Shown in pieces: positions 3,221 through 21,901 of a DNA stretch of 35,217 nt. The notes beneath the pieces are model-generated. The model did no database searches and was not told where the DNA came from. It was given only the letters and a program-made list of their open reading frames with translations. Within the stretch, counting starts at the first letter, position 1. Each line of letters begins with the position of its first letter. This DNA comes from Clostridia bacterium (lineage in GTDB: Bacteria > Bacillota > Clostridia > Oscillospirales > Acutalibacteraceae): positions 1 through 35,217 of the forward strand of contig JAFYMD010000106.1 in assembly GCA_017556785.1 (NCBI GenBank), read 5' to 3'. The translations under genes were made by a program, and so were the position numbers.

Positions 3221-3222
3221 CA

Positions 3223-6855: not shown

Positions 6856-6861
6856 GAGGTT

Positions 6862-6921
6862 TAGCAAAAAAAGAATAAAGCAAAATCGCAACGGAAACCA
6901 TTTGGTTTTCATTGCGATTTT
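6862..6921 (-). terminator. Rho-independent terminator after the phosphomutase gene
   Basis: AAATCGCAA (6883-6891) pairs with TTGCGATTT (6912-6920). The inner stem is GGAAACCA/TGGTTTTC. On the minus strand the hairpin is followed by TTTGCTTTATTCTTTTTTT. Confidence 0.65.
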
Positions 6922-6930
6922 TATGCGTTA

Positions 6931-8595
6931 TCATGATGCTTGAACAATACCTTCTACGGTTTGTTGCAGGGTTTGGATCTTTTCTTTTGCGATCTGCTTG
7001 GTTTCACCATTGGCAAACAGATAAAATTTCAGTTTCGGCTCTGTGCCGGACGGACGAATGATCACCGAACATTCATCGTTTAGCTCAAATGCCAACACGT
7101 CGGATTTCGGCAAGCCGTCTACGCCGGCCAAATAATCGGTACGATTTCGTAGGTTAAACCCGCCAAACGAATCACCGACACGGCGCATAGAAACCATAAA
7201 ATCTTTCATTTTTTGCATTCCTACTTCCCCTTCAAAGGTAAAGGAAAGAAGGGAATTCAAACTATATCCGTAAGTATTGTAAATTTCGGCCAGTTTTTCG
7301 GCAAGGCTTACGCCGAGGGATCGATAAAAACCGCACATTTCGCAAATCAAAAGCGCCGCATTCACACCGTCCTTATCTCTTACGTGAGAGCCGCTTAAAT
7401 AGCCACAGCTTTCTTCAAAGCCAAAGAGATAGCGTTCCTTTTGTCCCGCTTGCTCCAATTCACCGATCTTCTCGCCAATAAACTTGAAACCGGTCAGCAC
7501 GTTTACCATCTCTACCCCATAGTTTGCGGCAATTTTTTCGGCAAGCAAAGTGGTTACAATGGTTTTTACACAAAGGGGATTTTGGGGCATGGTTCCCATT
7601 TCGGTTTTTCTGCGGCAAATATAATCAAACAGAAGAATGCCTACCTCGTTGCCCGTGAGCAATTGATAATCATTTCCTTGCTTTACGGCTACCCCTACGC
7701 GGTCGCAGTCGGGGTCGGTAGCAAGCAAAATTTCGGCATTGTGCTTCTTGGCGTAGGTTAGTCCCAATGCCATGGCTTCGGGCATTTCGGGATTGGGAAA
7801 CGGGCAGGTGGGGAAATTTCCGTCGTGCTCTGCCTGTTCGTTCACCACAATGATATTTTGATACCCGTTTCGCTTCAAAATATCGGTCACCGGCTCCATG
7901 CCTGTGCCGTTAAGAGGCGTATAAACCACCGAGATGGTTTTGTCGGTGTTCTCGGCAAGAGACAGCTCGGTTACCGAAGCAATGAATTTTTCATACACTT
8001 CTTCGGGAACTTCATGGATCTTCTCCCCTGCTTGTTCGGGCAAGGATTCAAAATAGCCGAGACGGGAAATTTCATGGTAAATTTCGTCCGCCGCTTTGGT
8101 GGTTATCTGACAACCGTCTGCCCCATACACCTTATAGCCGTTATAAACGGCAGGATTATGGGAAGCGGTTATCATAATCCCTGCGTTGCATCCCAACTCC
8201 CGAACCGCAAAAGAAAGGGTCGGGGTCGGAAGAGGACGGTTGAATAAAAATACCGTAATATTTTTGTTGCTTAACACCTTGGCCGCGGTTTCGGCAAACA
8301 GTTTGGATTTGATTCGTGTATCGTAACCAATGGCGACCTTTTTTTCGCCCGAACCGGTATTCGAAATAAAATTAGCAAGTCCCAAGGTGGCACGAGCAAC
8401 GGTATATACGTTCATGCGGTTGGTGCCCGCACCGATTTTGCCACGAAGTCCTCCGGTTCCAAACTCCAATTCTTTAAAAAACGCATCGTTGATTTTAGCT
8501 GAATCGTTTTTGATTGCCAACAGTTCTTCTTTTAAATCTGCATCGGCCAAGGCATTTTGGCACCATTCTTCAAACAAATTGTTGATATTTGCCAT
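6931..8595 (-). CDS. Alpha-D-phosphohexomutase (phosphoglucomutase/phosphomannomutase, PgcA-like)
   Basis: All four superfamily motifs are visible. They are the active-site Ser loop ITASHNP, the metal loop DPDCDR, the sugar loop GFEESCG and the phosphate loop RPSGTEP. I start it at ATG 8595 (MANINNLF) because GAGGAG lies 6 nt upstream. The track start at 8613 adds 6 codons without an RBS. Confidence 0.9.
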   Translation of the reverse strand: MANINNLFEEWCQNALADADLKEELLAIKNDSAKINDAFFKELEFGTGGLRGKIGAGTNRMNVYTVARATLGLANFISNTGSGEKKVAIGYDTRIKSKLFAETAAKVLSNKNITVFLFNRPLPTPTLSFAVRELGCNAGIMITASHNPAVYNGYKVYGADGCQITTKAADEIYHEISRLGYFESLPEQAGEKIHEVPEEVYEKFIASVTELSLAENTDKTISVVYTPLNGTGMEPVTDILKRNGYQNIIVVNEQAEHDGNFPTCPFPNPEMPEAMALGLTYAKKHNAEILLATDPDCDRVGVAVKQGNDYQLLTGNEVGILLFDYICRRKTEMGTMPQNPLCVKTIVTTLLAEKIAANYGVEMVNVLTGFKFIGEKIGELEQAGQKERYLFGFEESCGYLSGSHVRDKDGVNAALLICEMCGFYRSLGVSLAEKLAEIYNTYGYSLNSLLSFTFEGEVGMQKMKDFMVSMRRVGDSFGGFNLRNRTDYLAGVDGLPKSDVLAFELNDECSVIIRPSGTEPKLKFYLFANGETKQIAKEKIQTLQQTVEGIVQAS

Positions 8596-9644
8596 TATAA
8601 CTCCTCGGTGCACAAAGCGAGCAGTTCATCCACGTGAGCGGTAGCAACACACTCAACCGTATCACTTGCGCCATAGTAAATTTTCACCTGACCGTCATCT
8701 TCCAAAATCATGCCGCCGGGGAAAATCACGTTTTGTCTGAATCCCTCGTCGGTTTCATAGGGAAGTTCGGGAGCGATCAAAGGACTCTTGCTCATACCAA
8801 TTACCTTGGAAGGGTCTTCCAAATCCAGCAGAGCGATCCCTGCGGTATAGCGCTTAGTCCAGGTAAGATCCCAAGTGGTTTGCCCTCTGCCTTCTCGTTC
8901 CACGTCAACCGCGTGGAAGGTAATCAACCAGCCTTTATCGGTTTTCACGGGAGGGGCGGCAGGGCCGATTTTGTTGTTGGCATACGGTACGTTTTCGACC
9001 CCCAGCACCAGTTGGCTTTCCCCCCAGAATTTCAGGTCGGGAGATTTGGAAATCCACATATCAAAGCGGTCTCTGCCGCCGCGACCGTATACAGGGAAAG
9101 GCCGTTCCAAACGATAGTAATATCCTCCGATTTTTTCGGGGAAAAGCACCATGTTGCGGTTGTCGGGCACGGTTGCGCTAATGATTTCGTAACCGGAAAA
9201 ATCGTCCTTTACCTTGGCAATTGCCCCACGAATACCATGATGAGTGTCCATAGCAAGGCAAAGATAAATCTCACCGTCGATCACGGTCAATCGGGGATCA
9301 TACAAGCGCAAAATGTCGGGTACGTCTTTTTCTTTCCCCAGCATATTTTTGCCCACTTGATAGTCCACCAGGGGAACTTCTTTTACCTGCCAATTGGTAA
9401 CACCGTCATCGCTGAAAGCAATGCCAACGGAAGTCCCTTTAAACCCAATTTTTTGGTTAACAAATTTATCGCTGTCGGTTCCGTAATCGTTACGGAACAC
9501 CATCACGTATTTTCCGTTGATTTTTTCAACGCCTGCGTTAAAAATCAAAGCGGCGTCATAAGGAATATCATCCTTGGTTAAAATCGGTTTTTCTAATTTT
9601 TTAAGACAATCTGCACTTTTCAGAATGGGTTCCCAAATAGCCAT
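8595..9644 (-). CDS. GH130 family beta-mannoside phosphorylase-like protein
   Basis: About 349 aa and cytoplasmic. The N-terminus KPILTKDDIPYDAALIFNAGVEKINGKYVMVFRND and the overall five-bladed-propeller-like repeat pattern resemble GH130 enzymes (mannosylglucose, mannooligosaccharide and Man-GlcNAc phosphorylases). Start is at ATG 9644 (MAIWEP); the track start is a TTG 9 nt upstream. The stop TAA overlaps the downstream ATG (TAATG at 8597-8593). Confidence 0.75.
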   Translation of the reverse strand: MAIWEPILKSADCLKKLEKPILTKDDIPYDAALIFNAGVEKINGKYVMVFRNDYGTDSDKFVNQKIGFKGTSVGIAFSDDGVTNWQVKEVPLVDYQVGKNMLGKEKDVPDILRLYDPRLTVIDGEIYLCLAMDTHHGIRGAIAKVKDDFSGYEIISATVPDNRNMVLFPEKIGGYYYRLERPFPVYGRGGRDRFDMWISKSPDLKFWGESQLVLGVENVPYANNKIGPAAPPVKTDKGWLITFHAVDVEREGRGQTTWDLTWTKRYTAGIALLDLEDPSKVIGMSKSPLIAPELPYETDEGFRQNVIFPGGMILEDDGQVKIYYGASDTVECVATAHVDELLALCTEEL

Positions 9645-9682
9645 AAAAAACAACCTTTCTTTATTTTAAAATTTTCAATTTG

Positions 9683-9711
9683 ATTATACAATATGGAATC
9701 ATATATTGCAA
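9683..9711 (-). promoter_or_regulatory. Putative sigma-A promoter in front of GH130-phosphomutase
   Basis: The minus strand reads TTGCAA (9711-9706), a 17-nt spacer, then a consensus TATAAT (9688-9683). It sits about 40 nt upstream of ATG 9644. Confidence 0.6.
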
Positions 9712-9723
9712 GAATAAAACGAT

Positions 9724-10851
9724 TTATTGATTCGAGGCAACTGCTTGATAGGCAATATGCAACCAACCTGCATGCTCTTGGTTACCGGTGTCGGAGCCGC
9801 CCCCTTCGGGCAACCAGCTTTCCCGTACCACTTGGTCGCAACAATCTTCCAAGAAAATCAGCAATTCTTGCAAGCGGTCGGTATAGCCCATTTTTTTGCA
9901 ATACATCATTTCCCAAGCAAGCCCTTTGCCCAGCACGTGGGTACCTTTGGCGGCAGGGGCAAGTTCGGTTTCAAAGGCGGTGAAACTGTCTAACATTTGG
10001 TATTTGCCATAATATTCCACATAACCGTATTTCAGATAAGCCTGATAGGTGTTCTCTAACATCTCGGGGTCGGCGGCATACCAATCGCAACTCATGGGAG
10101 CCAAATTCACCCACGAAAACCCGAGAATATCCCGACGGGCCGCGTTGGGATTGGCATCAATAGACTTTTGACTGCGACCAATAAGCTCGGCATACATCTT
10201 TTTGCCGTCTACCTCTCCTACCAGGAAGTTATGCACACCCTTTACAATGGTAGCGGCGGCAGATTCCCACACCTTGGCGTTTTCGGGGTCAGTTTCGGCT
10301 ACCAACTGTGCCAACTCGTGCAAGGCTTGGGAAGCGTACACGTTGGTGAGCAAGTCGTAGCATTGGAAATACGAACGGTCACGGGAATGCTCTAAACTTT
10401 GGTTAAACAACAAACCGTAGGGATTATCCAAAGCCCCATTTTGCAAAAAGTAGTGGGCAAAGATTGTTACCCGCTCATAGGAATTTTCCAAAAATGCCTT
10501 GTTTTCGTCGGTTTTGGGAGCGGTGTTGGCAAAGGTCACCCACGTATGCAAAAAGAAGAAGGTGGCATCTGCCTGACATTTCATGCAGGGATTACGATGG
10601 GCAGGGTCCAGCACGTGAATAAGATAATCAAAGCCGTGTTGATTGTGATAATCCACGGTGTATTCCATGATTTTGCGGGCAAGGTCATAGTCCCCACGCA
10701 AAACGTGGCACAGTGCGTGTACCGAAGCATCCCGTCCGTACATGCCGCCGTAAGCACCCGTTACCGAAGTGGCGGCATAGCCGTCTTCCCGAATGCGGTC
10801 GGCCAGGGAACGATAGGTGTTTTCAAACAGCAAATGAATTTTTTCGGTCAT
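9724..10851 (-). CDS. Uncharacterised enzyme-like protein, paralog 1 of 3 (putative six-hairpin glycosidase-like fold), cytoplasmic
   Basis: 375 aa with no signal peptide and the RBS GAGGAGAA. It shares these blocks with 10921-12057 and with the middle of 12072-15020: GMYGRDASVH, LEHSRD, YDLLTNVYASQALHELA, GFSWVNLAPMSCDWY, GKGLAWEMMYCK and GGGSDTGNQEHAGW. Confidence 0.8.
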   Translation of the reverse strand: MTEKIHLLFENTYRSLADRIREDGYAATSVTGAYGGMYGRDASVHALCHVLRGDYDLARKIMEYTVDYHNQHGFDYLIHVLDPAHRNPCMKCQADATFFFLHTWVTFANTAPKTDENKAFLENSYERVTIFAHYFLQNGALDNPYGLLFNQSLEHSRDRSYFQCYDLLTNVYASQALHELAQLVAETDPENAKVWESAAATIVKGVHNFLVGEVDGKKMYAELIGRSQKSIDANPNAARRDILGFSWVNLAPMSCDWYAADPEMLENTYQAYLKYGYVEYYGKYQMLDSFTAFETELAPAAKGTHVLGKGLAWEMMYCKKMGYTDRLQELLIFLEDCCDQVVRESWLPEGGGSDTGNQEHAGWLHIAYQAVASNQ

Positions 10852-10877
10852 AGTAATTTCTCCTCATAAGGGATTGC

Positions 10878-10912
10878 GACAAAACCACCGACCAAACAAA
10901 GTCGGTGGTTTC
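10878..10912 (-). terminator. Possible weak terminator or attenuating hairpin between paralog 2 and paralog 1
   Basis: AAACCACCGAC (10882-10892) pairs with GTCGGTGGTTT (10901-10911) around an 8-nt loop. The T-tract on the minus strand is short (TTTTGTC) and lies partly within the stem. Confidence 0.4.
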
Positions 10913-10920
10913 CGTAGCAA

Positions 10921-12057
10921 TTATTGTCCCAATTCGGGATAAATGGTTTTATGGGTATACAGCATCCAACTGGCGTGTTCTTGGTTGGCGGTGTCCGAGC
11001 CGCCGCCCACGTAGTGCCAGGTTTCACGATACATATCTTCGCTGAAATCTTCCACGAATTTGGTCAGTTCCGCAAGACGTTCGGCGTAACCCATCTTTTT
11101 GCAATAGAGCATTTCCCAAGCAAGACCTTTCCCGATAACGTGACCGCCACGGGTAATGGGCGCAAGGTCGGTTTCAAATTGGGTGCAAACGTCCAACATA
11201 TAGTTGGTGTTGTAATAATCGCAAGCGCCGTATTTCAGATACATTTGATAGGTGTTTTCCAAAATTTCGGGGTCGGCACCATACCAATCGCAACCCATGG
11301 GAGCAAGGTTCACCCAAGAGAAGCCGCGAATATAGCGAGTAGTAGCATTGGCATTTTCGTGCACTGCTTTGTGGCTACGACCGATGAGTTCGCAATAGAT
11401 TTTTTTGCCGTCTACTTCGGCGGTCAAGAACTTATGCACACCGCCCACGATTTTGGTGGCGGCCGCTTCCCATTTTTTAGCATTTTCGGGGTCGCAATCG
11501 GCTACAAAGGTTGCCAATTCGTGCAGGGCTTGAGAAGCATACACGTTGGTGAGCAGGTCGTAGCAATAAAAGTAAGAGCCGTCGCGGGAATGTTCTAAAC
11601 ATTCGTTATACAACATTTCATAGGGGTTATCCAAATTGCCGGCATCCAAATAATAGTTGGCAAATTTTTGAATCATGCTGTAAGAACTTGCCAAAAATGC
11701 GTCTTTTTCGGGAGAAGCAGGTGCGGCATTCATATACATCACCCAAGCGTGGATGAAGAAGAAAGCGGTATCGGCTTGCTTACGCAAGGAAGGAGGGGCA
11801 TCGTTTTCGTAGATGACGTGAATCGCGAAATCGTAGCCGTGGGTTTCGTGGTAGCCGATGATATAGTTCATCAGTTTACGGGCTTGTTCGTAATCGCCGT
11901 GGGCCACGTGACACATGATTTGAATGGAAGTATCACGGCAGAACATACCGTTATAGTGACCGGTAATAGAAGTATCGGCATAGCCGTCTTCGTGGGTGCG
12001 GTCAATCATGGATTGATAGGTTTTGTTATACAAAGAAATTGCTTTTTGCGTTACCAT
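10921..12057 (-). CDS. Uncharacterised enzyme-like protein, paralog 2 of 3, cytoplasmic
   Basis: 378 aa with no signal peptide. The upstream gene's stop TAA is followed immediately by AGGAG and, 9 nt later, the ATG, indicating operon coupling. A 75-aa central block (LEHSRD...ELIGRS) is 59/75 identical to paralog 1 by hand alignment. Confidence 0.8.
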   Translation of the reverse strand: MVTQKAISLYNKTYQSMIDRTHEDGYADTSITGHYNGMFCRDTSIQIMCHVAHGDYEQARKLMNYIIGYHETHGYDFAIHVIYENDAPPSLRKQADTAFFFIHAWVMYMNAAPASPEKDAFLASSYSMIQKFANYYLDAGNLDNPYEMLYNECLEHSRDGSYFYCYDLLTNVYASQALHELATFVADCDPENAKKWEAAATKIVGGVHKFLTAEVDGKKIYCELIGRSHKAVHENANATTRYIRGFSWVNLAPMGCDWYGADPEILENTYQMYLKYGACDYYNTNYMLDVCTQFETDLAPITRGGHVIGKGLAWEMLYCKKMGYAERLAELTKFVEDFSEDMYRETWHYVGGGSDTANQEHASWMLYTHKTIYPELGQ

Positions 12058-12071
12058 AGCAAGAGTCTCCT

Positions 12072-15020
12072 TTAGAACGTAATGTCAGCATACAGCATGT
12101 TATGGTCAGAGTGACCGTTGTTGACCATGGTGCCTTTGCCTACCGTCCATTTTTTGCATACCACAATGTTGTCAATGGCGCCGTCTTCGCCGTTGGTGAC
12201 AAAGGTGTTGGTAGCATTGTTTACAATGTTGCCGCCGAACACGTTAAACGCCGCGAAATTAGAGCAGTTAAAGTCGCCGGTGATAATGAAGTTGTCCAAA
12301 CCGCTCAAACGATCGGCAATTTCTTGAAATTGACCCGATTGCAAGCTGGTCCAAGTGGTGTGGGTATTAAAGAAGTTTACCATTTGGGTGCCCACCTGAA
12401 TCACAGCATGGCCGCATACCCGTTGTTCTTCGGTACCCGAGGGCAATTGGAAGGTGCTGTAGCTTTTAATGGGGTATTTGGATATAATGGCGTGACCGTA
12501 GGCACCGCCTTCTAAATCAATGGCTTTGGAATAGCCGTAGTACCAACCAAGCTCGTCTGCCAACAACTTGGCTTGGTCTTTTTTGCCGGTACGAATGGTG
12601 TTGTTGTCCACTTCTTGCAAGCCGACAATATCCAACCCGGCATCGGTAATATCTTTGGCGATGGTAGCAGCAGAGGCATCACTTAAAATATGAATGTTAA
12701 AGGTAGCAACTCGCAGGCCGTTCACTTCTTCCACGGGAGGTTGTGCGTTGGGGTCTTTTTTGGTCAGTTCGGGGTGGCAATATTTATGAGCAAACAACAT
12801 CCAGCTGGCGTGTTCTTGGTTGGCGGCGTCAGAGCCGCCGCCGCTGGCTTGCCAGGTTTCACGATACATTTGGTCGCTGTATTTTTCAATGAACGCTTCC
12901 AGCGTACGAATGCGATCGGTATTCCCTACCATTTTGCAATACATCAATTCCCAAGCAAGGCCTTTCCCAATGATTTCGCGAGCGCGAACGTTGGTGGAAC
13001 CGGTGTAGTTGGTGTGTACTTCCAGCATTTTGTATTTACCAAACCAACTGCCTGCGCCGTATTTCATATACAGTTCGTAGGTGTTAGCCATAATTTCTTC
13101 GTCCATGGCATACCATTCGCAACCAACGGGAGCCATGTTTACCCAAGAAAATCCTTGTACAAATTTATCGTTTTCAATGTCGATCAACTCGGCATACATC
13201 TTTTTCCCGTCAATTTCGGTTACCAGATGCTTGTGAACACCTTGTGCGATCAAGTCTGCCCCTTCTCGCCACGCTTTGGCACGGGCGGGATCTTTGGTGG
13301 CAAAGTATTTTGACAACTCGTACCATGCCTGAGAAGCATATACGTTGGTCAGAAGGTCGTAGGAATTCCATTCTCGTTTATCGCGAGAGTGTTCCAAATA
13401 GGGGTTTTCCATCAATCCTTTTTCCCGATTGAAATACATATCGTCAATAAAGTAATCGGCAAAATCTTTGACCTTGTCTTCACTGGCATTCAGCAAAGCG
13501 GTTTTTTCAGCCGAAGCGGGCGCTTTGGTCGCATACATATACCAAGCGTGTAAGAAGAAGAAGGTGGTGTCGGTTTGCAGTTTATCGGAATAGGGCTTTT
13601 TGTTTTCCTGCATGATGTGCAGCACGTAATCTTTTTTGTATTCCTTGTGATAATCCACAATATACTTCAAGATCTTGGCGGCGTAATCATAATCTCCCTG
13701 GGCTATGTGTGCCATAACTTGAATGGAGGAGTCACGGCCAAACATACCCACGTAAGCCCCGTTGAGCGAGGTTTGAGCATACCCGTTTTCATGAGTGCGG
13801 TCTAACATGGATTGATAGGTTTCGGCATACAGCGATTGCCCTTTTACCGAATACAAGGGCAATTCGTGCGTTACGGGTTCAATGGGATCGTCGGCAGTTT
13901 CTTTGTCTGCGGGGAATTTGTCGATTTTACCTACCACATGTTGCAGTACCAGCAAAGCATCAGCGGCAGAAATATTACCGTCGTCATCTACGTCGGCCAA
14001 TTCTTTTTGTTGGTCGGTCATGGCTACCTTGCCAACCACTTGCTTGAGAATCATCAACGCATCAGCCGCAGAAATTGCGTTGTCTCCATCGGGATCACCG
14101 TACAACGGTTTTTCAGAGACGTTGTCCAACGCGTTAAAAGCCTTTACCGCATCCACATAGGTTTGATAATTTTCAACATCATTTACACCGGTGGCAAAAA
14201 CGTAATGGTACAGCATTTGGTCGATTTTCACCAAAGCATCCCGAGAATCGGTGGTAATGGTACCCAGGGCAGTAATGGCATCTTCAATGTCGAACCGTTC
14301 TTTATGTTCTTCACGGTAGATCAGATCTTCGATTCTGTTTTTGCAATAAATCAATTTTTGAATATCTACCACCTTACCACGATCACTGCTGTTCATGGCA
14401 ACGTATTCGTTATAAAGGCCCATAACCCGTTCTTGGTCAGCCAAGGTAATTTCTTCCACCGCAGGCAAAGCGGCAATTTTTTCCGACAATATCTCATAAG
14501 CGGGACGGGTATCTGCAGCCGCACCGATCAATTCAAAGGCTGCAACGGTATCACCAAACCGTTTCCATCCTCCGTCGTTGTTCCAAGCGGTACAGGAATA
14601 CCCGGTAACCGTTGTCATGCCGTTCCACACCGCACGATTGGCAGTATGAACGGAAAAAGAATACCGTTCACCCGCCGTCACGGCTACGGCCGTAGAGAAG
14701 AGCAGTTCAAACCAATCGGTTTTTGCATCAACAAGAGTTAGGGTTTCGGTATAAATTTGAGTACCCGTGTCGGGCGTACCGGAATATACCGTAACATCAA
14801 TGGTGTTATTGGCAGATTCGTTTGCCAAATATACTTTGATTCCTTCCAGAACCTCCGAACCCGGCACGAATTCTTGACCTGCCATATTGGCACCGCTGAT
14901 TAAAAAAAGCGGAGTAGTCGTGTTTGTGGACGAGGTAAAGGCTGTTTCTGCTACGGTAGCAGTCACCATAACCGAAAAGAACATTACCAAGCACAAAACG
15001 GTGGCAATCAAACGTTTCAT
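12072..15020 (-). CDS. Secreted 982-aa multidomain protein: signal peptide, beta-sandwich-like module, helical repeats, internal dockerin, paralog-3 enzyme-like module, C-terminal EEP (endonuclease/exonuclease/phosphatase) domain
   Basis: I start it at ATG 15020 (MKRLIATVLCLVMFFSVMVTATVAE, a classic signal peptide) with AGGAGGA 8 nt upstream. The track start at 15083 adds 21 implausible codons. Domain evidence is given in the separate entries below. Confidence 0.85.
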   Translation of the reverse strand: MKRLIATVLCLVMFFSVMVTATVAETAFTSSTNTTTPLFLISGANMAGQEFVPGSEVLEGIKVYLANESANNTIDVTVYSGTPDTGTQIYTETLTLVDAKTDWFELLFSTAVAVTAGERYSFSVHTANRAVWNGMTTVTGYSCTAWNNDGGWKRFGDTVAAFELIGAAADTRPAYEILSEKIAALPAVEEITLADQERVMGLYNEYVAMNSSDRGKVVDIQKLIYCKNRIEDLIYREEHKERFDIEDAITALGTITTDSRDALVKIDQMLYHYVFATGVNDVENYQTYVDAVKAFNALDNVSEKPLYGDPDGDNAISAADALMILKQVVGKVAMTDQQKELADVDDDGNISAADALLVLQHVVGKIDKFPADKETADDPIEPVTHELPLYSVKGQSLYAETYQSMLDRTHENGYAQTSLNGAYVGMFGRDSSIQVMAHIAQGDYDYAAKILKYIVDYHKEYKKDYVLHIMQENKKPYSDKLQTDTTFFFLHAWYMYATKAPASAEKTALLNASEDKVKDFADYFIDDMYFNREKGLMENPYLEHSRDKREWNSYDLLTNVYASQAWYELSKYFATKDPARAKAWREGADLIAQGVHKHLVTEIDGKKMYAELIDIENDKFVQGFSWVNMAPVGCEWYAMDEEIMANTYELYMKYGAGSWFGKYKMLEVHTNYTGSTNVRAREIIGKGLAWELMYCKMVGNTDRIRTLEAFIEKYSDQMYRETWQASGGGSDAANQEHASWMLFAHKYCHPELTKKDPNAQPPVEEVNGLRVATFNIHILSDASAATIAKDITDAGLDIVGLQEVDNNTIRTGKKDQAKLLADELGWYYGYSKAIDLEGGAYGHAIISKYPIKSYSTFQLPSGTEEQRVCGHAVIQVGTQMVNFFNTHTTWTSLQSGQFQEIADRLSGLDNFIITGDFNCSNFAAFNVFGGNIVNNATNTFVTNGEDGAIDNIVVCKKWTVGKGTMVNNGHSDHNMLYADITF
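12075..12722 (-). other. EEP (endonuclease/exonuclease/phosphatase) domain
   Basis: Residues ~767-982. Motifs are LRVATFNIH, DIVGLQEVD, GHAIISKYPI, NFFNTHTTW, IITGDFNC and the terminal SDHNMLYADITF. These are the canonical EEP fold motifs (N/E metal site, GDFN, SDH). Confidence 0.8.
12765..13859 (-). other. Paralog-3 copy of the uncharacterised ~375-aa module
   Basis: Residues ~388-752. Motifs are GMFGRDSSIQ, LEHSRD, YDLLTNVYASQAWYELS, GFSWVNMAPVGCEWY, GKGLAWELMYCK and GGGSDAANQEHASW. The 75-aa central block is 42/75 identical to paralog 2 by hand alignment. Confidence 0.8.
13911..14105 (-). other. Dockerin module (internal position)
   Basis: YGDPDGDNAISAADALMILKQVVGKVAMTDQQKELADVDDDGNISAADALLVLQHVVGKIDKFP. 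Both Ca-binding loops are canonical. Confidence 0.85.
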
Positions 15021-15054
15021 AAAAAAAGTCCTCCTATTACTTGACATTATCTCT

Positions 15055-15083
15055 ATTATAAAGTAAATTATAATAGAAAACAA
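15055..15083 (-). promoter_or_regulatory. Putative promoter of the 982-aa gene / paralog operon
   Basis: The minus strand reads TTGTTT (15083-15078), a 17-nt spacer, then TATAAT (15060-15055). It lies about 35 nt upstream of ATG 15020, in the divergent intergenic region shared with the AraC gene. Confidence 0.45.
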
Positions 15084-15135
15084 GAGTTATATTTTGCTTT
15101 TTTCATATATTTTTAACTTTCGGAGGGCAAATACG

Positions 15136-15984
15136 ATGGCAATTATTTTTCACGAAGTCAGTCAAATCTTTACCGACACCTTACCCGGCATTTCTTTAAG
15201 CCATCAAGAAGCCAAGGTCAGCGGCGGACATTTGCCTCCTCATTGGCACGAACGAATGGAAATATGGTTGATTCGCGAAGGGAAAATGACCATTTCTTGT
15301 GACCGAGACATCTTTGACGTGGGTGCCGGTGACGTATTGATCTTCAATCCCGGGGAAGTACACTCCTGTCGCGTAACCAAAGCCCCCTCGTCCATTGAGT
15401 GTGCCATTTTTGATCTGACCTCGTTGTTGACCAATCGTCCCGCCGACATTGACCCGCTGATTCGCTCCATTTCTTCGGGGAAGGTGCGATTCCAACACAT
15501 TGTAAGAAAAAACGAAGACGTTCATCAATTGATCGAACAACTGACCGCATGCAACCACACCACCCCTATCAACATTATGCGGGCAGAAGGTTTGCTGCTG
15601 CAATTGCTGTCGGTCTTGCTGGAAGGGTACGTTTCGGTAAAAACCTATTCGGTTCCTCACCATTTGCAAGAAGTCAGCAGTTTGCTGGAATACATCCACG
15701 AACATTTGGCTGACGATATTTCGCTGGAAAACCTGGCCAACCGCGCTTGTATGTCCCCCTCGTATTTTTGCCGATGGTTCAAGGGTGCCGTAGGGGAATC
15801 TCCCATGGCCTACGTGACCACGTTGCGCATCAACAGGGCCTACGAACTGTTGTCAAACGGCTGTTCGGTCACCGAAACCTGTCACAAAGTCGGCATTGAC
15901 GATCTCAACAACTTTAATCGGCAATTTCGCAAGCGAGTAGGTGTTTCCCCCTCTAAAATAAAAGCCGAGACCAAACGCGGATGA
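15136..15984 (+). CDS. AraC family transcriptional regulator (cupin sensor + HTH)
   Basis: The N-terminal cupin is HWHERMEIWLIREGKMTISCDRDIFDVGAGDVLIFNPGEVHS. The C-terminal AraC double HTH is LENLANRACMSPSYFCRWFKGAVGESPMAYVTTLRINRAYELL...NNFNRQFRKRVGVSP. Start is at ATG 15136 (MAIIFHEV) with GGAGGG 8 nt upstream. It is divergent from the 982-aa gene. Confidence 0.85.
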   Translation: MAIIFHEVSQIFTDTLPGISLSHQEAKVSGGHLPPHWHERMEIWLIREGKMTISCDRDIFDVGAGDVLIFNPGEVHSCRVTKAPSSIECAIFDLTSLLTNRPADIDPLIRSISSGKVRFQHIVRKNEDVHQLIEQLTACNHTTPINIMRAEGLLLQLLSVLLEGYVSVKTYSVPHHLQEVSSLLEYIHEHLADDISLENLANRACMSPSYFCRWFKGAVGESPMAYVTTLRINRAYELLSNGCSVTETCHKVGIDDLNNFNRQFRKRVGVSPSKIKAETKRG

Positions 15985-16031
15985 TTGGCACGGCAATTGT
16001 CAAATTCTATGGAAAAAAGTAAAATATCGTC

Positions 16032-16060
16032 TTGCAAACCGTTCCAATCAATGGTACAAT
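16032..16060 (+). promoter_or_regulatory. Putative promoter of the DUF1846 gene
   Basis: TTGCAA (16032-16037), a 17-nt spacer, then TACAAT (16055-16060), preceded by TGg (extended -10). Confidence 0.6.
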
Positions 16061-16087
16061 AGAATTTGTTTTTAGGGGGGCGACGAA

Positions 16088-17572
16088 ATGACAAAAGGTT
16101 TTGACAATGACAAGTATTTGGCCATGCAATCCGAACACATTCGAGGACGCATTGACCAATTCGGCGGTAAGCTGTATTTGGAATTCGGCGGCAAATTGTT
16201 CGACGATTTTCATGCGGCTCGGGTATTGCCCGGCTTTTTACCCGACAGCAAACTGCAAATGCTGTTGCAACTGAAAGAACAAGCCGAAATTGTAATTGTA
16301 ATCAGCGCCACCGCCATTGAAAAAAACAAGGTGCGCGGTGACCTGGGAATCACCTACGACCAAGACGTACTGCGATTGATCGACGCTTTTCGCAGTGTAG
16401 GCTTGTACGTGGGTAGTGTTGTGCTTACCTGTTTTGCCTACCAACCCGCCGCTGAAGCATTTCAAACCCGATTGGAAAAATTGGGTGTACGGGTATACCG
16501 TCATTATGTCATTTCGGGGTATCCCTCCAACGTTGATCTCATCGTCAGCGATGACGGTTACGGAAAAAATCAATACATTGAAACTTCTCGTCAATTGGTG
16601 GTGGTCACCGCTCCCGGACCGGGTAGCGGCAAAATGGCAGTTTGTTTGTCTCAGCTGTATCACGACCACAAGCGTGGCGTACAAGCAGGCTATGCCAAAT
16701 TCGAAACCTTCCCTGTTTGGAATCTGCCGCTAAAGCATCCCGTGAACATGGCATACGAAGCCGCCACCGCCGATTTAAACGACGTAAATATGATCGACCC
16801 TTTCCACCTGGAAGCCTACGGCAAAACCGCCGTGAACTATAACCGCGACGTGGAAATTTTCCCTGTGGTCAGCGCCATGATGGAACGAATCTTGGGGGAA
16901 TCGCCCTATAAATCCCCCACCGACATGGGTGTCAATATGGCAGGCAACTGTATTGTAGACAACGACATGGTTTGCCAAGCCGCCAAAAGTGAGATCGTAC
17001 GGCGTTACTACGCCGGGTTGTTGGCGCAAAAAAACGGCAACGGCTCCGAAGAAACGGTGCGAAAATTGGAACTGCTTATGAAGCAAGCAGGCGTTACGGT
17101 AGCTGATCGCAAAGTCGTTGCCGCCGCCAATACCCGAGCCGAAGAAACAGGCGAGCCCGCCGCCGCCATAGAGCTGCCCGACGGTCGTATCATTACCGGC
17201 AAGACCTCACCCCTTATGGGTGCTTCTGCCGCTTTGTTGCTCAACGCATTAAAAGCTTTGGGAGGCATTGACAAAGAAATCCACCTGCTGTCCCCGGTGA
17301 TTATTCAACCCATTCAGCACCTGAAGGTCGACCACCTGGGCAACCACAACCCCCGCTTGCACACCGACGAAATTTTGTTGGCGTTGTCTATTTCCGCCGC
17401 CACCAATCCCACCGCTGAAGTGGCAATGCAACAACTCAATCTGTTAAAGGATTGCCAAGTGCACTCCTCGGTAATTTTATCCCCCGTGGATCAAAAAACC
17501 TTCAAAAACTTAGGAATACAACTGACCATGGAGCCGGTTTATCAATTCAAAAAACTGTTCCACAAAAAATAA
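16088..17572 (+). CDS. UPF0371 / DUF1846 family protein (conserved, function unknown)
   Basis: 494 aa. Blocks are FDNDKYLAMQSEHIRGRIDQFGGKLYLEFGGKLFDDFHAARVLPGF, VVTAPGPGSGKMA, GYAKFETFPVWNLPLKHPVNMAYEAATADLNDVNMIDPFHLEAYG, SPYKSPTDMGVNM and DHLGNHNPRLHTDEILLALSI. These match the highly conserved UPF0371 family known from streptococci and clostridia. Confidence 0.9.
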   Translation: MTKGFDNDKYLAMQSEHIRGRIDQFGGKLYLEFGGKLFDDFHAARVLPGFLPDSKLQMLLQLKEQAEIVIVISATAIEKNKVRGDLGITYDQDVLRLIDAFRSVGLYVGSVVLTCFAYQPAAEAFQTRLEKLGVRVYRHYVISGYPSNVDLIVSDDGYGKNQYIETSRQLVVVTAPGPGSGKMAVCLSQLYHDHKRGVQAGYAKFETFPVWNLPLKHPVNMAYEAATADLNDVNMIDPFHLEAYGKTAVNYNRDVEIFPVVSAMMERILGESPYKSPTDMGVNMAGNCIVDNDMVCQAAKSEIVRRYYAGLLAQKNGNGSEETVRKLELLMKQAGVTVADRKVVAAANTRAEETGEPAAAIELPDGRIITGKTSPLMGASAALLLNALKALGGIDKEIHLLSPVIIQPIQHLKVDHLGNHNPRLHTDEILLALSISAATNPTAEVAMQQLNLLKDCQVHSSVILSPVDQKTFKNLGIQLTMEPVYQFKKLFHKK

Positions 17573-17581
17573 TTCAAACGC

Positions 17582-17625
17582 AAAAAACGATCCCCGAAAG
17601 CAACCGTTTTCGAGGATCGTTTTTC
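17582..17625. terminator. Bidirectional rho-independent terminator between convergent DUF1846 and GH13 genes
   Basis: AACGATCC (17586-17593) pairs with GGATCGTT (17614-17621). The inner stem is CGAAA/TTTCG. An A-run lies upstream and a T-run downstream. Confidence 0.75.
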
Positions 17626-17629
17626 ATTC

Positions 17630-19495
17630 TTATAACCAATCAAACAACACCAATCCACCGCTCATGGGAGGCAACAACAAGTCATTGTCCGTGCACTCTC
17701 CCAGCAAGGTCGTAAGGTGTTTTCCGTTGCGCGGCAGGGAAACTGCCGTTTTTTTGTTACCGCGGTTGACCGCGACCAACAAGGCTTGGTTGTCTGCCAC
17801 ACGCATATACGCTACCGTATTTTGATCGGCATACAACGGCACCATGTCGCCTTCCTTCAACATCGGCAGTTCGGTTCGCCATGCGCCCAATCGCTTATAC
17901 CATTCCTTCAGTTTGGGACACGGAGGCGTGTTCCAAGCCATGGGTGCACGGTTAAAGGGATCGCCGTACCCTTCCATTCCCAATTCGTCACCGTAATAAA
18001 CGCAAGGCACACCGGGTAGGGTGTACTGCAACAACGTTGCCAACTGCACCATGGCTTCTCCCCGCTTATATTGGTCAGCGTGCAAGCGAGTCTTGGACTG
18101 CCATGCCCGATCTCGTCCTTGCTCCGCCTCCCCTGCCAATGCGGTGATCAACCGCTTGGTGTCGTGAGTGCCCAAGTGATTCATAAGGGTGTGCAAAGCG
18201 GGGGCAGGGTAGTTTTCTGCCACCGTCATGACCGTTTCCAAAAAGGCATTGCCGTCGCCGTTGCGCACAAAATCAAGTACCGCATTGGCAAAGGGATAGT
18301 TCATAACGCTGTCTAACTGCGTTCCCAACAAATAACTGCGGCGGTTGCCGTAACTGATTTTGGTGGTGGCGTCTTCCCACACCTCTCCCAAAATCATGCC
18401 TTGCGGGTGATTGGCTTTGACACCGCGCCGCAAATAGTCCAAAAACAGGTCGGGCAATTCATCTGCCACATCTAACCGCCAACCGTCGGCACCTCGGTTC
18501 ATCCAATAGGCCAATACGCCGTCGTGCCCCGTAATAAACGAAAGGTAGTCGGGGTCGGTTTCGTTGACTTCGGGCAGGGTTTGAAATCCCCACCAAGAGT
18601 GATATTTTTCGGGGTAGTTAATAAAGGTGTACCAAGAGCGATAGGGGGAATCGGGACGATTGACTGCACCGTTTGGTTCGTACCGCAGTTGTTTGTTAAA
18701 GTACACGCTGTCGCTTCCCGTGTGGGAAAATACGCCGTCTAACAAAATACGTATTCCCACCGCATGAGCGGCGGCGCACAAATCTTTGAAATCTTGCTCG
18801 GTTCCCAAAAGCGGATCAATCTTTTTGTAGTCGGCGGTGTTGTACCGATGATTGGAATGTGCCTCAAAAATAGGATTTAAGTAGAGGCAGGTAACCCCCA
18901 ACTCTTTGAAATAAGGGAGTTTGCTTTCTATCCCTTTTAAGTCTCCGCACCAATAATCGTTGTTCAGACGACAGGGCTCTTGCTCGGTTTTGTCTACGTT
19001 AAAGGCAGGTTGTCCCACAAATTCAGAGTACAAATACCGCTCGGCGGGCACGTTTTGTTTTGGCGTACCCGAAGCACAAAATCGGTCGGGAAAAATTTGG
19101 TACATAATACCGCCTTTTAACCAATCGGGGGTCTGAAAGTCGGCACGGTACACCGTCAATTGCCATTCGGGGCCGTCGGCTTGCATAATTCCCGCGCCGC
19201 CTTTTCCGCAAGTGAGCGGATTGTGACCATAGGGGGTGTCGAAGTAAAAGTGGTAAAAATACAACCCTGCTTCGTTGGGGGTGATGATACACTCCCACCA
19301 CCAGCCGTTTTGGTCACCCTCTAAGGTGCGCCAAACGTCTTGCCATATTTCTGCTTTGCCGTCTTTGTGATAAATCAGCCAAGCACGACTGCAATCTAAG
19401 GGCAAATATAGCTTAAAACTGACAGGAGTCCCCGCCGTAACCGCCCCAAAAGGGGTTTTATAGCGGGGATCTTGTGAATAGTAAGGGGTTTTCAT
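17630..19495 (-). CDS. GH13 alpha-glycosidase (neopullulanase/cyclomaltodextrinase-like), cytoplasmic
   Basis: 621 aa with no signal peptide. The four GH13 conserved regions are DGVFSHTG (I), GWRLDVADE (II, nucleophile Asp), GEVWED (III, acid/base Glu) and NHLGTHD (IV). It has an N-terminal beta-domain typical of neopullulanase-type enzymes. Only 3 nt separate it from the glgP stop. Confidence 0.9.
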   Translation of the reverse strand: MKTPYYSQDPRYKTPFGAVTAGTPVSFKLYLPLDCSRAWLIYHKDGKAEIWQDVWRTLEGDQNGWWWECIITPNEAGLYFYHFYFDTPYGHNPLTCGKGGAGIMQADGPEWQLTVYRADFQTPDWLKGGIMYQIFPDRFCASGTPKQNVPAERYLYSEFVGQPAFNVDKTEQEPCRLNNDYWCGDLKGIESKLPYFKELGVTCLYLNPIFEAHSNHRYNTADYKKIDPLLGTEQDFKDLCAAAHAVGIRILLDGVFSHTGSDSVYFNKQLRYEPNGAVNRPDSPYRSWYTFINYPEKYHSWWGFQTLPEVNETDPDYLSFITGHDGVLAYWMNRGADGWRLDVADELPDLFLDYLRRGVKANHPQGMILGEVWEDATTKISYGNRRSYLLGTQLDSVMNYPFANAVLDFVRNGDGNAFLETVMTVAENYPAPALHTLMNHLGTHDTKRLITALAGEAEQGRDRAWQSKTRLHADQYKRGEAMVQLATLLQYTLPGVPCVYYGDELGMEGYGDPFNRAPMAWNTPPCPKLKEWYKRLGAWRTELPMLKEGDMVPLYADQNTVAYMRVADNQALLVAVNRGNKKTAVSLPRNGKHLTTLLGECTDNDLLLPPMSGGLVLFDWL

Positions 19496-19498
19496 GGG

Positions 19499-21901
19499 TT
19501 ATTTAACCGCGGTGCAATGCCAAATATCTCTGGCGTAATCTTCTACCGCACGGTCGGCGGCAAACCGCCCCGACATGGCGGTATTGGTAATCGCCATGCG
19601 ATTCCATACAGCGGGTTTTTGGTACAATTCGCTTACTTTTTCTTGTGCACGGCAGTAGCTTTCAAAGTCAGCCAATACCATGTAGGGGTCACGATGAAGC
19701 AAAGAGTTGACCACGTCGGGGAAATAGTGCCCGTCAATGCCTGCGCTGATAAAGTCAATGGCTTGACGAATACGAGGATTGTTGTAGTAGTATTGGGTGG
19801 GATTGTAACGAGATTTGAGTTCTGCCGCTTCGGGGGTGCTCATACCAAAAATTACAATATTGTCGTCGCCCACAGCCTCGTGAATTTCCACGTTGGCACC
19901 GTCTTCGGTACCCAAGGTAACCGCACCGTTGAGCATGAGTTTCATGTTGCCGGTACCCGAAGCTTCGGTACCTGCCAACGAAATTTGTTCACTCACGTTG
20001 GCGGCGGGTACCAACAATTCTGCCAAGGTTACGCGGTAGTCTTCCATATACACGATTTTCAGTTTGTCTTTTACCGCGGGGTCGTTTTCAATGTGCTTAG
20101 CCAAGGTGCAAATCAATTGAATAATTTGTTTGGCAAGGAAATACCCCGGTGCGGCTTTTGCCCCGAAAATATAGGTTTTGGGGGTGAATTCGGCATTGGG
20201 ATTGTTTTTGATAAACAGATAATCGTCAATAATATGCAACACGTTAAGATGTTGCCGTTTGTATTCGTGCAACCGTTTGATTTGGATATCGAAAATGGAT
20301 TCCAAATTGCAGTCGCCACCACCGTGACGGCTGATGTATTTTGCCAAACGGGCTTTGTTGTTTTGTTTGATTTTGTGGAAGGTTTCTTGTACCGTGGCAT
20401 CGTCGGCGTATTTCATCAATTCTTCCAGCTTGTCGGCATTGTAAATATAATCGTTGCCAATCAAATCGGTAATCATAGCCGCCAGTTCGGGGTTGGCTTG
20501 GTTGAGCCAGCGACGATGAGCAATACCGTTGGTTACGTTTTTGAATTTTTGAGGGGTCAAGCGATAAAAGTCGGCAAATACGCTGTCTTTTAAGATTTCG
20601 CTGTGCAATTGAGAAACCCCGTTTACGCTGTGGCAAGCGGCTACTGCCATGTTTGCCATGCGCACCACACCGTCGGCCAAAATCGCAGTGCGTTCTACCA
20701 AGCCGGCGTCATAGGTTTGATTCCAAACCCGTTCCCGATGACGATTGTCAATTTCGGTGACGATTTGGAAAATACGGGGTAGACGTTCTTTAAACAAGTC
20801 CATGGGCCAGCATTCCAAAGCCTCACGCATAACCGTGTGGTTGGTGTAGGCAATGGTGCGGGTGACAATATCCCAAGCGTCGTCCCAAGTGTAACCGCAT
20901 TCGTCCAACAAAATACGCATCAATTCGGGAATTGCCAATACGGGGTGGGTGTCGTTGGTGTGAATGGCGGCTTTTTCGGGCAGATTGTCCAACGTACCGT
21001 AACGTTGCAGGTGGTCACGAACAATGTCTTGCACCGAAGCCGATACCAAAAAGTATTGTTGACGAAGGCGCAAAGATTTACCTTCATAGTGGTTGTCGGC
21101 AGGGTAAAGCACTTGGCTGATTACAGTAGCCATAGCATTTTGTTGCATAGCGCGCATATAGTCCCCGTCGTTAAACAGTTTCATGTCTAAACCGGGAGCT
21201 TCGGCACTCCAAAGCCGCAAAACCGACACCCCTTTGCCGTCTTGCCCTGCAACCATCAGGTCGTGGGGAATGGCTTTAATAGGTGCATAGTTTTCGTGTT
21301 CTACGTGGTGATGGTGACCGTCCCACCAATCTCGCACATAGCCGTCAAAACGAACTTCAATGGCTTGTTCGGGGTGGTCAATAAACCATACCTCGCCACC
21401 GGGAAGCCAAAAGTCGGGCAACTCGGTTTGCCAACCGTCGATGAGTTTTTGACGGAAAATACCGTATTCATAGCAAATAGAATACCCCATGGCAGGGTAA
21501 CCGTCGGTGGCAAGACCGTCTAAATAACAGGCTGCCAAACGACCTAACCCACCGTTGCCCAAACCGGCATCCGGCTCTTGATCAAAGATTTTTTCCAACT
21601 TAATGTCAAAATCGCTCAGGGCTTGTTCAAAAGAATCCATCAGCCCTAAGTTGGAAAGGTTGTTTTTCAGCGAGCGACCCATCAAGAATTCCATGCAAAG
21701 ATAATATACCTGCTTGGCATCTTGCTTGGCGGCACGCCCCATAAAATCGTTGCGACCCTTTTGCAACATGTCTTTTACAATCAAAACGATTGCTTTGTAA
21801 TAATGCTCGTTGGTGGCTTCGTGGGGGGTTACGCCGAAGTAGTGAGAAAGTTTTTGTAAAATCAATTCTCGTGCTTCGGACGAAGATAAACGGTAATCCA
21901 T
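19499..21901 (-). CDS. glgP: Glycogen/maltodextrin phosphorylase (GT35)
   Basis: 800 aa. The pyridoxal-phosphate lysine motif is EASGTGNMKLMLNGA. Other typical blocks are GLGNGGLGRLAAC, NDTHP and HEYKRQ. The RBS GGAGG precedes ATG 21901. Confidence 0.95.
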   Translation of the reverse strand: MDYRLSSSEARELILQKLSHYFGVTPHEATNEHYYKAIVLIVKDMLQKGRNDFMGRAAKQDAKQVYYLCMEFLMGRSLKNNLSNLGLMDSFEQALSDFDIKLEKIFDQEPDAGLGNGGLGRLAACYLDGLATDGYPAMGYSICYEYGIFRQKLIDGWQTELPDFWLPGGEVWFIDHPEQAIEVRFDGYVRDWWDGHHHHVEHENYAPIKAIPHDLMVAGQDGKGVSVLRLWSAEAPGLDMKLFNDGDYMRAMQQNAMATVISQVLYPADNHYEGKSLRLRQQYFLVSASVQDIVRDHLQRYGTLDNLPEKAAIHTNDTHPVLAIPELMRILLDECGYTWDDAWDIVTRTIAYTNHTVMREALECWPMDLFKERLPRIFQIVTEIDNRHRERVWNQTYDAGLVERTAILADGVVRMANMAVAACHSVNGVSQLHSEILKDSVFADFYRLTPQKFKNVTNGIAHRRWLNQANPELAAMITDLIGNDYIYNADKLEELMKYADDATVQETFHKIKQNNKARLAKYISRHGGGDCNLESIFDIQIKRLHEYKRQHLNVLHIIDDYLFIKNNPNAEFTPKTYIFGAKAAPGYFLAKQIIQLICTLAKHIENDPAVKDKLKIVYMEDYRVTLAELLVPAANVSEQISLAGTEASGTGNMKLMLNGAVTLGTEDGANVEIHEAVGDDNIVIFGMSTPEAAELKSRYNPTQYYYNNPRIRQAIDFISAGIDGHYFPDVVNSLLHRDPYMVLADFESYCRAQEKVSELYQKPAVWNRMAITNTAMSGRFAADRAVEDYARDIWHCTAVK

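Follow-up and report, generated by a model that had tools for sequence, protein, structure and literature searches.

A dockerin-bearing fusion of a six-hairpin module and an EEP phosphoesterase in gut Clostridia, a candidate tool for phosphorylated mannose-rich glycans

What could a secreted bacterial protein do with a glycosidase-like module, a dockerin and a phosphoesterase domain on one polypeptide? The question is raised by an open reading frame (ORF) at positions 12072-15020 (minus strand) of contig JAFYMD010000106.1, from a Clostridia bacterium of the Acutalibacteraceae. The whole stretch of DNA that was analysed, 35,217 nt long, is hereafter called the window. An initial annotation of this stretch had described the ORF as a fusion of a six-hairpin-like module with an endonuclease/exonuclease/phosphatase (EEP) domain, directed at a substrate in which glycosidic and phosphoester linkages occur together, and this interpretation is partly supported by our results. 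The reading that we favour, with a probability of about 0.5, is that the fusion is a cohesin-docked glycosidase and phosphoesterase that attacks phosphorylated mannose-rich glycans, with fungal or yeast mannoprotein N-glycans and phosphomannan as the likeliest substrates and other phosphorylated high-mannose glycans as possible ones. That both halves of the protein act on one phospho-glycan is, taken by itself, rather likely. The direct basis for this reading consists of the domain order, the folds, the intact catalytic residues of the EEP domain, the recurrence of the fusion and the gene contexts.

The ORF is real and correctly delimited. Its product of 982 amino acids begins with an ATG at 15020, preceded by an AGGAGG Shine-Dalgarno sequence 9 nt upstream, and the stop codon occupies positions 12072-12074. 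Pfam searches, alignments with solved dockerins and direct reading bore out the boundaries and the domain order given in the initial annotation: signal peptide, DUF4082-like beta-sandwich, helical spacer, type I dockerin, module of ~375 residues and EEP domain (all on the minus strand). Direct reading of the sequence places the start codon and a Sec signal peptide at residues 1-24 (14949-15020); the signal peptide is MKRLIATVLCLVMFFSVMVTATVA, with cleavage after TVA and before E. It is followed by an N-terminal beta-sandwich at residues ~30-170 (14511-14933), a putative carbohydrate-binding or accessory module whose match to Pfam DUF4082 is sub-threshold (residues 57-128, E 0.0024). The helical spacer at residues ~175-300 (14121-14498), recognized by direct reading, is made of 'KIAALP...ITL' repeats that are multiplied in two relatives (P0017 and P0032), and FIVAR matches were found in 6 of 46 long relatives. 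The dockerin (residues 306-370; 13911-14105) matches Pfam Dockerin_1 at residues 307-361 (E 2.6e-9), and the region 306-373 aligns with the solved dockerins 4uyp and 2ccl, over 68 residues in the case of 4uyp. It has the two calcium-binding repeats of a type I dockerin, DPDGDNAISAADAL and DVDDDGNISAADAL. Dockerins were the only matches of the whole fusion protein to the sequences of solved structures, and no cohesin partner was identified within the window. The internal position of the dockerin had been called uncommon, which is overstated. The window also encodes N-terminal (1808-3163) and C-terminal (24670-25668 and 26656-31425) dockerins, and the dockerin precedes the module in every dockerin-bearing family member seen; an internal dockerin is unremarkable in both the source organism and the module family.

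The central module extends over residues 384-755 (12756-13871) according to the bounds of a family hidden Markov model (HMM). Neither the module nor its paralogs matched any Pfam or NCBIfam entry, and no solved structure was found among the sequence relatives of the family. As had been proposed, the module is akin to the two ORFs immediately downstream, with which it shares 51% (10921-12057) and 47% (9724-10851) identity. AlphaFold2 gave a confident model (predicted local distance difference test, pLDDT, 93; predicted template modelling score, pTM, 0.92) that folds as an (alpha/alpha)6 barrel, so the initial label of a six-hairpin-like, glycosidase-like module is correct. The top nine Foldseek neighbours of this model in the PDB are all entries of glycoside hydrolase (GH) family 125 (E 3e-9 to 6e-8, TM scores of 0.66-0.72, 14% identity). 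BT3781 of Bacteroides thetaiotaomicron (2p0v) ranks first, followed by the Clostridium perfringens GH125 entries and other GH125-type structures. GH125 is the closest fold and yet gives no match by sequence: the family profile reached no GH125 chain among PDB chains at E <= 10, and no Pfam GH125 match was obtained at E <= 0.01. A prediction that the module is a mannosidase is therefore not a claim of membership in GH125.

An alignment of 26 family members revealed the near-invariant motifs RD, LEHSRD, YDLLTN, GFSWVN, GKGLAWE and NQEHASW, as well as the near-invariant carboxylates D178, E234, E314, E344, D354 and E359, which are candidate catalytic residues. Searching 1.84 billion representative proteins with the family HMM retrieved 330 proteins at E <= 0.001, 143 of them at E <= 1e-30. 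Many members are long, multi-domain proteins and many contain large DUF4082 insertions; DUF4082 was detected in 15 of the 46 long members, and also in L017, L027 and L035. Members were found in 41 loci among 185,579 species genomes. The gut hosts are metagenome-assembled genomes (MAGs) of Acutalibacteraceae, Oscillospiraceae and Ruminococcaceae from goat, deer, sheep, horse and Hadza humans, including an Acutalibacteraceae MAG whose locus (L004) matches the window at 97%, and the carriers from outside the gut are soil Actinomycetota (Actinoallomurus, Labedaea, Jatrophihabitans and Antiquaquibacter) and Cohnella. Our search of the literature on DUF4082 and on a described new mannosidase family yielded nothing relevant. 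The module represents a family without a name in Pfam or NCBIfam, and a candidate new glycoside hydrolase family.

Gene neighbourhoods were surveyed by calling and clustering the ORFs of 46 related loci. The commonest kept neighbour of the module family is an AraC-type regulator, located beside a family member in 16 loci. In three Oscillospiraceae loci (L012, L013 and L024), an ABC importer precedes a GH38 alpha-mannosidase gene whose end overlaps the gene of a cytoplasmic module protein, and in L024 the latter gene is followed by a ROK gene; these loci display the co-location with GH38, ROK or ABC importer genes that is expected of a GH125-type enzyme. The best solved relative of the GH38 neighbour is that of Streptococcus pyogenes (SpGH38, 2e-98). 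In Cohnella (L042 and L044), a two-component system and an ABC importer are followed by a GH2 gene and, immediately after it, the module gene; the same GH2 cluster is also represented no more than 10 kb from the module in L041, L034 and L037. True beta-mannosidases are the best solved relatives of this GH2 enzyme (2e-127 to 1e-100), and its identification as an exo-beta-glucosaminidase was rejected, CsxA scoring just 3e-17. In L004 and the window alike, module paralogs are followed by genes for a GH130 enzyme, a phosphomannomutase (PMM) and a DUF4838 protein. The locus of a distant member (L046) has GH18, GH20, GH29 and GH3 genes alongside.

All the informative partners of the module are mannose enzymes. 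In bacterial N-glycan breakdown, GH38, GH92 and GH125 enzymes carry out demannosylation, and the Man-beta1,4-GlcNAc bond is cleaved by GH2, GH5_18 and GH130 enzymes (review, PMC10154615). Since GH38, GH125, GH2 and GH130 constitute the known set for the breakdown of high-mannose N-glycans and alpha-mannan, in which phosphatases take off the phosphate (PMC4978465), the context of the module fits mannose pathways. The module holds the place that is usual for GH125 in N-glycan and mannan loci, and its modelled fold and its context together suggest an enzyme of the exo-alpha-mannosidase type. Of the substrates initially proposed, which ranged from yeast mannan to teichoic-acid-like polymers and capsules, the mannose-based ones are favoured by the context, with GH130 and PMM genes here and GH38 or GH2 beta-mannosidase genes elsewhere. 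Apart from these operons, three or four genes for long secreted proteins stand in tandem in L017 (7019-18907), L018 and L021. The L017 array encodes proteins of 1246, 615, 618 and 1280 amino acids, the first of which contains the module and the second, of 615 residues, a CBM4_9 domain. Arrays of this kind suggest that the module is also the core of a more extensive extracellular system.

The module could also be a glycosidase other than a mannosidase, either similar to alpha-L-rhamnosidases or cleaving a bond between a sugar and a non-sugar, as the GH63 glycosylglycerate hydrolases do; in that case the neighbouring mannose enzymes would cleave different linkages of a glycan of mixed composition. 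The family profile made just one, marginal match to a solved structure, the GH78 rhamnosidase B 2okx. PF17389, the GH78 six-hairpin domain, matches 7 of the 46 long members, along with P0080, L017 and L027 (best 5e-8), and Cohnella members carry a Rha78A-type N-terminal immunoglobulin (Ig) domain. GH63 glucosyl-/mannosylglycerate hydrolases and GH15-type enzymes are near-equal structural neighbours of the module. The PF17389 matches are however weak and partial, and none was made by the module of the window itself. Rhamnose-pathway genes were found in none of the loci examined, whose immediate operon partners are GH38, GH2 beta-mannosidase or GH130 with PMM. We consider a non-mannosidase unlikely, and an exo-alpha-mannosidase type better suited to the module.

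The EEP domain occupies residues 766-982 (12075-12725), and the initial annotation had read in it all the canonical motifs of this fold. Pfam PF03372 (Exo_endo_phos) matched residues 772-973 with its full model (1-225 of 225; E 4e-16, 59.8 bits against a cutoff of 24.5), and a second Pfam match was to PF23226, a PGAP2IP/CWH43-type domain. Residues N11, E39, H123, D152-x-N154, D186 and D208-H209 (domain numbering) are invariant across 43 homologues, in agreement with that reading. The AlphaFold2 model (pLDDT 97.4) adopts the four-layer alpha/beta sandwich of EEP enzymes. It retrieved 258 PDB matches at E <= 0.001, and the top matches listed are all EEP-fold enzymes. An uncharacterised EEP protein of Beutenbergia (4ruw) ranks first and BT3783 of B. 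thetaiotaomicron second (3mpr and 4c1r, deposited as 'mannosyl-6-phosphatase'; 1e-13, about 19% identity), followed in order by BVU_0621, TDP2, nocturnin and neutral sphingomyelinase. The scores of these named neighbours lie close together (3e-15 to ~1e-12, at 15-20% identity), so that the structural ranking is suggestive only. DNase I and ExoIII were absent from the top 50 structural neighbours.

A single-sequence search of the EEP domain against solved structures returned nothing meaningful, and a deeper profile was required. A profile of 43 sequences, searched against PDB sequences, matched 3teb (1e-9), 3g6s (3e-6), the Staphylococcus aureus beta-hemolysin, a sphingomyelinase (1e-5), BT3783 (2e-5 for 3mpr and 5e-5 for 4c1r, over a partial stretch), sphingomyelinase C (7cne, 7e-5), TDP2 (4fva, 5e-3), ExoIII (6e-3) and DNase I (1e-2). 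Judged by profile, nucleases are the most distant relatives of the domain, and the sugar-phosphatase and sphingomyelinase types equally near; the sequence kinship to BT3783 is no closer than that to sphingomyelinases. BT3783 is an EEP-fold, Mg2+-binding phosphatase that was assayed on phosphorylated high-mannose N-glycans, and it is encoded beside the GH125 enzyme BT3781 in the yeast-mannan locus of B. thetaiotaomicron, as a separate protein, the two serving to process phosphorylated mannan and N-glycans (Cuskin et al. 2015, PMC4978465). The Bacteroides precedent that had been mentioned in the initial annotation is thereby confirmed. Like BT3783, the EEP domain studied here is encoded with enzymes for mannan or N-glycan degradation, namely the fused GH125-like module and the GH130, PMM and DUF4838 genes of the operon.

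Recurrence of the fusion had been named as a way to distinguish a functional pairing from a chance one, and the pairing is not unique to this genome. An EEP domain is carried by 14 of the 224 module-containing proteins collected, the module-EEP fusion is present in at least seven species-level genomes, down to ~43% identity, and a cytoplasmic gene pair exists in addition. Six proteins (P0005-P0009 and P0100) have two EEP domains in tandem, with the catalytic and metal-binding residues intact in both copies. In a divergent fusion from a roe-deer gut MAG (P0117, 2069 aa, locus L016), a module with a large insertion is followed by an EEP domain and an alpha/beta-hydrolase esterase domain. The gene pair was found in two independent samples (L049 and L050), where a signal-less EEP gene of 218 codons lies immediately upstream of a signal-less module gene. 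The plan of the locus is kept across the fusion loci: an AraC regulator, up to two dockerin-module genes, the fusion and one or two cytoplasmic paralogs. Given this recurrence in related bacteria, the protein probably combines two functions directed at mannose-rich glycans that are decorated with phosphate. A general association of EEP with the module family was rejected, as no EEP ORF occurs within 10 kb of the module outside the fusion clade. The module-EEP link is real yet lineage-specific, being confined to one group of gut Clostridia.

Three further observations concern the relatives of the fusion. In L047 (160-3045), an EEP ORF without signal peptide begins 13 nt past the stop of a dockerin-module gene; this 'split' pair was not counted as independent evidence, because the fusion may have been broken, the stop codon may be read through or the assembly may be wrong. 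In the clade with two EEP domains (L001 16648-19332; L002 and L009), a protein of ~890 residues with weak GH14-/GH42-like matches and then an acyltransferase_3 gene replace the GH130, PMM and DUF4838 genes downstream of the paralogs. The esterase domain of P0117 is 41% identical (E 9e-52) to a dockerin-tagged esterase encoded in the window at 24670-25668.

In the window, the fusion gene opens a unit of six genes on the minus strand. The gene of the first paralog (10921-12057) begins 14 nt past the stop codon of the fusion and is followed by that of the second (9724-10851); they encode proteins of 378 and 375 residues, both without signal peptide and cytoplasmic. Next come a GH130 beta-mannoside phosphorylase-type gene (8595-9653; Pfam Glyco_hydro_130, E 3.6e-32), most closely related among solved proteins to TM1225, the N-glycan phosphorylase UhgbMP, Lin0857 and RaMP2 (beta-1,2- and beta-1,4-mannoside phosphorylases included), and a phosphomannomutase/phosphoglucomutase gene (6931-8613; Pfam PGM_PMM domains I-IV) that overlaps the end of the GH130 gene. 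The last gene (5168-6790; Pfam DUF4838, E 2e-96) encodes a signal-less protein of the GH163/GH185 type, GH20-like. Two families have DUF4838 as their catalytic domain: GH163, which acts on complex N-glycans by cleaving GlcNAc-beta1,2-Man, and GH185, a cytoplasmic 6-sulfo-GlcNAcase (PMC10570127). A terminator-like hairpin with a 17-bp stem and a T run (5113-5151, minus strand) closes the unit, and an AraC-family regulator (15094-15984, plus strand; Pfam AraC_binding and HTH_18) is encoded divergently upstream.

The near-equal profile scores of sphingomyelinases and BT3783 raise another possibility, namely that the protein acts on the head groups of glycolipids such as the glycosyl- and mannosylinositol phosphorylceramides (GIPC/MIPC) of fungi or plants, glycosylphosphatidylinositol (GPI) anchors or actinobacterial phosphatidylinositol mannosides (PIM) and lipomannan. 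The EEP domain would then cut the phospho-lipid link and the module would trim alpha-mannose. Beta-hemolysin and sphingomyelinase C are reached at 1e-5 to 7e-5, neutral sphingomyelinase is among the structural neighbours, and the PGAP2IP/CWH43-type Pfam match points in the same direction. So do proteins resembling neutral ceramidase that adjoin module paralogs in L015 and L045, the inositol-catabolism and nagA/nagB genes beside the module in L045, and the esterase domain of P0117. However, the link to ceramidase-like proteins is limited to two loci, and in L015 the ceramidase-like and module genes are convergent and hence not in one operon. The EEP domain has 218 residues, far fewer than the matched chains of sphingomyelinase C and beta-hemolysin (298-317 aa). 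No lipid-handling gene is present in the operon of the window, the support lies mostly outside the operon and is thin, and the partners GH130, PMM and DUF4838 fit the breakdown of N-glycans or mannan better. A glycolipid substrate seems improbable to us, and we would give rather little credence to its extension, in which the module-EEP pair would belong to a bacterial system that dismantles glycosyl-inositol-phospho-lipids, with ceramidase-like, inositol-catabolic and esterase partners completing the pathway.

The two loci with ceramidase-like genes are as follows. The proteins, of ~420 residues and related to the N-terminal half of neutral ceramidase, are encoded at 6733-8013 (minus strand) in L015 and at 7012-8268 (plus strand) in L045, and the L015 protein has a THTH motif that falls on the GTHTH stretch of human neutral ceramidase when the two are aligned. 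L015 lies in the same Acutalibacteraceae MAG as L004, and L045 comes from Actinoallomurus iriomotensis. In L045, a run of genes at 1-19700 encodes a LacI regulator, an SSF transporter, an AGE-family epimerase, NagB, a SIS protein, NagA, the ceramidase-like protein and a protein of 497 residues; a secreted family member closes the run, and a myo-inositol catabolism cluster follows immediately on the other strand.

Several observations weigh against phosphorylated mannose-rich glycans as the target. On the side of the module, GH15-, GH63-, GH116-, GH78- and GH37-type barrels score barely below GH125 in Foldseek, and the sole detectable sequence affinity of the family, a weak one, is towards the GH78 rhamnosidase six-hairpins. 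On the side of the phosphoesterase, sphingomyelinases are as near to the EEP domain as BT3783 by profile. The operon of the window has no sugar importer. Some 30 further module loci lack an EEP gene up to a distance of 10 kb, which means that phosphate removal is not intrinsic to the module family. Close stand-alone homologues of the EEP domain (40-48% identity) are widespread in Clostridia, several with lipoprotein-type signal peptides, and the single stand-alone context examined (P0242) sits among genes unrelated to glycan use, so the wider EEP subfamily yields no functional clue. Finally, the two other large secreted phosphoesterases encoded in the window could indicate general phosphate scavenging instead.

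These last points bear on a third alternative, already envisaged in the initial annotation, namely that the EEP domain works outside the cell as a general-purpose nuclease or phosphatase that scavenges nucleotides or phosphate or clears DNA, joined to the module by the domain shuffling of dockerin proteins and sharing no substrate with it. EEP enzymes include DNase I and ExoIII, and the subfamily is abundant as stand-alone proteins, of which one (P0353) has its own dockerin; of the two secreted metallophosphoesterases of the window, one is dockerin-tagged. Against this stands the conservation of the pairing: the fusion is kept to ~43% identity, occurs in tandem-duplicated form and in the divergent clade of P0117, and is swapped for an adjacent cytoplasmic gene pair in L049 and L050, and such a pair inside the cell is hard to reconcile with a non-specific nuclease. 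Nucleases are moreover the most distant EEP relatives by profile and lie outside the top structural neighbours, and the domain is a minimal core of 218 residues, compared with 260 and 268 in the matched DNase I and ExoIII chains. Scavenging by an unrelated nuclease or phosphatase is in our view a doubtful explanation, and a shared phosphorylated mannose-rich glycan accounts better for the pairing.

Including the EEP fusion, these 35 kb encode three phosphoesterases, at least two of which bear a signal peptide. One is a protein of 451 residues (1808-3163, plus strand) in which a signal peptide and an N-terminal dockerin precede a calcineurin-like metallophosphoesterase domain, and another is a Metallophos-domain ORF of at least 1217 codons that runs off the end of the window (31567-35217, plus strand). 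Past the terminator of the operon, an exporter-type ABC protein with fused membrane and ATPase domains (3223-5028, minus strand) is kept in L003, L004, L005 and L014. Beside the AraC regulator and module locus lies a DUF1846 gene (16088-17572, plus strand) that is syntenic in L003, L005, L008 and L049. A second run on the minus strand (22859-25668) contains an alpha/beta-hydrolase esterase with a C-terminal dockerin (24670-25668), nagB (23920-24642) and nagA (22859-23923), and is adjoined by a second AraC regulator (25796-26554). A further large glycosidase with a dockerin (26656-31425, plus strand; 1589 aa) combines GH116-like N-terminal and catalytic regions, PA14, two CBM6 and a C-terminal dockerin.

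From these elements we infer which activities the proteins have, that they are specific for mannose, in what order they act and which phospho-glycan they attack, in the following scheme. The signal peptide would export the protein and the dockerin would fix it to a cell-surface scaffold, with the DUF4082-like module and the helical spacer presenting the catalytic half to the substrate. The EEP domain, presumed to depend on Mg2+, would strip phosphate esters that otherwise block exo-glycosidases, and the six-hairpin module, as a putative GH125 analogue, would trim the exposed alpha-linked mannose. Imported oligosaccharides might be finished in the cytoplasm by the two signal-less paralogs and the GH163/GH185-type hexosaminidase. 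The GH130 phosphorylase would yield mannose 1-phosphate, which the phosphomannomutase would convert to mannose 6-phosphate, the nearby nagA and nagB products may handle N-acetylglucosamine (GlcNAc), and the AraC regulator would control the unit.

Should the module prove to be a glycosidase, its ~330 representatives, which come from gut Clostridia, soil Actinomycetota and Cohnella, would make up a glycoside hydrolase family of their own. This family appears to replace GH125 in mannose-glycan pathways, and would fill a gap in the finishing of N-glycans and mannan by Gram-positive gut bacteria. We know of no earlier glycosidase-phosphatase fusion for phospho-glycans, and this one would be the first. 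The fusion also offers a testable handle on a large group of uncharacterised EEP proteins of Clostridia, several of which are predicted lipoproteins. Enzymes that remove phosphate and mannose from yeast-type glycans would be useful for glycoprotein remodelling, and for understanding the turnover of yeasts and fungi in herbivore and human guts.

Comparison with known systems places the protein between several enzyme groups. With sphingomyelinase C, beta-hemolysin and the neutral sphingomyelinases it shares the EEP fold, the catalytic residues and profile E-values level with those of BT3783, whereas the EEP domain of the window is about 80-100 residues shorter than sphingomyelinase C and beta-hemolysin, is fused to a glycosidase-like module and belongs to a sugar-catabolic operon. 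The GH78 six-hairpin enzymes (PF17389) resemble some family members through a weak sequence affinity and the Rha78A-type Ig domain in Cohnella, but the gene neighbourhoods of the module family indicate mannose, not rhamnose. The GH125 enzymes encoded in N-glycan loci of Firmicutes, such as CpGH125, are alike in fold and in their position after GH38 behind an ABC importer, with ROK following in L024; unlike them, the module family has its own conserved motifs, large DUF4082 insertions in many members and no GH125 sequence match. The closest parallel in organization is MAN-PUL2 of B. thetaiotaomicron, a locus where an exo-mannosidase-type enzyme of (alpha/alpha)6 fold is likewise encoded together with an EEP-fold phosphoesterase, BT3781 being the top structural neighbour of the module and BT3783 the second of the EEP domain. 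Sequence identity to these proteins is 14-19%, the module is undetectable as GH125 by sequence, and the GH76, GH92 and GH99 genes were not found in the window. The Bacteroides proteins are separate, periplasmic and part of a Sus-type polysaccharide utilization locus (PUL), in contrast to the single dockerin-bearing polypeptide of Gram-positive Clostridia described here. The logic that both would share, phosphate being taken off before the mannan is trimmed, is already known from Bacteroides; what is new is a module family unnamed in Pfam and NCBIfam and without a solved structure, its dockerin-based display in Gram-positive gut bacteria, and the covalent fusion of the two enzyme types.

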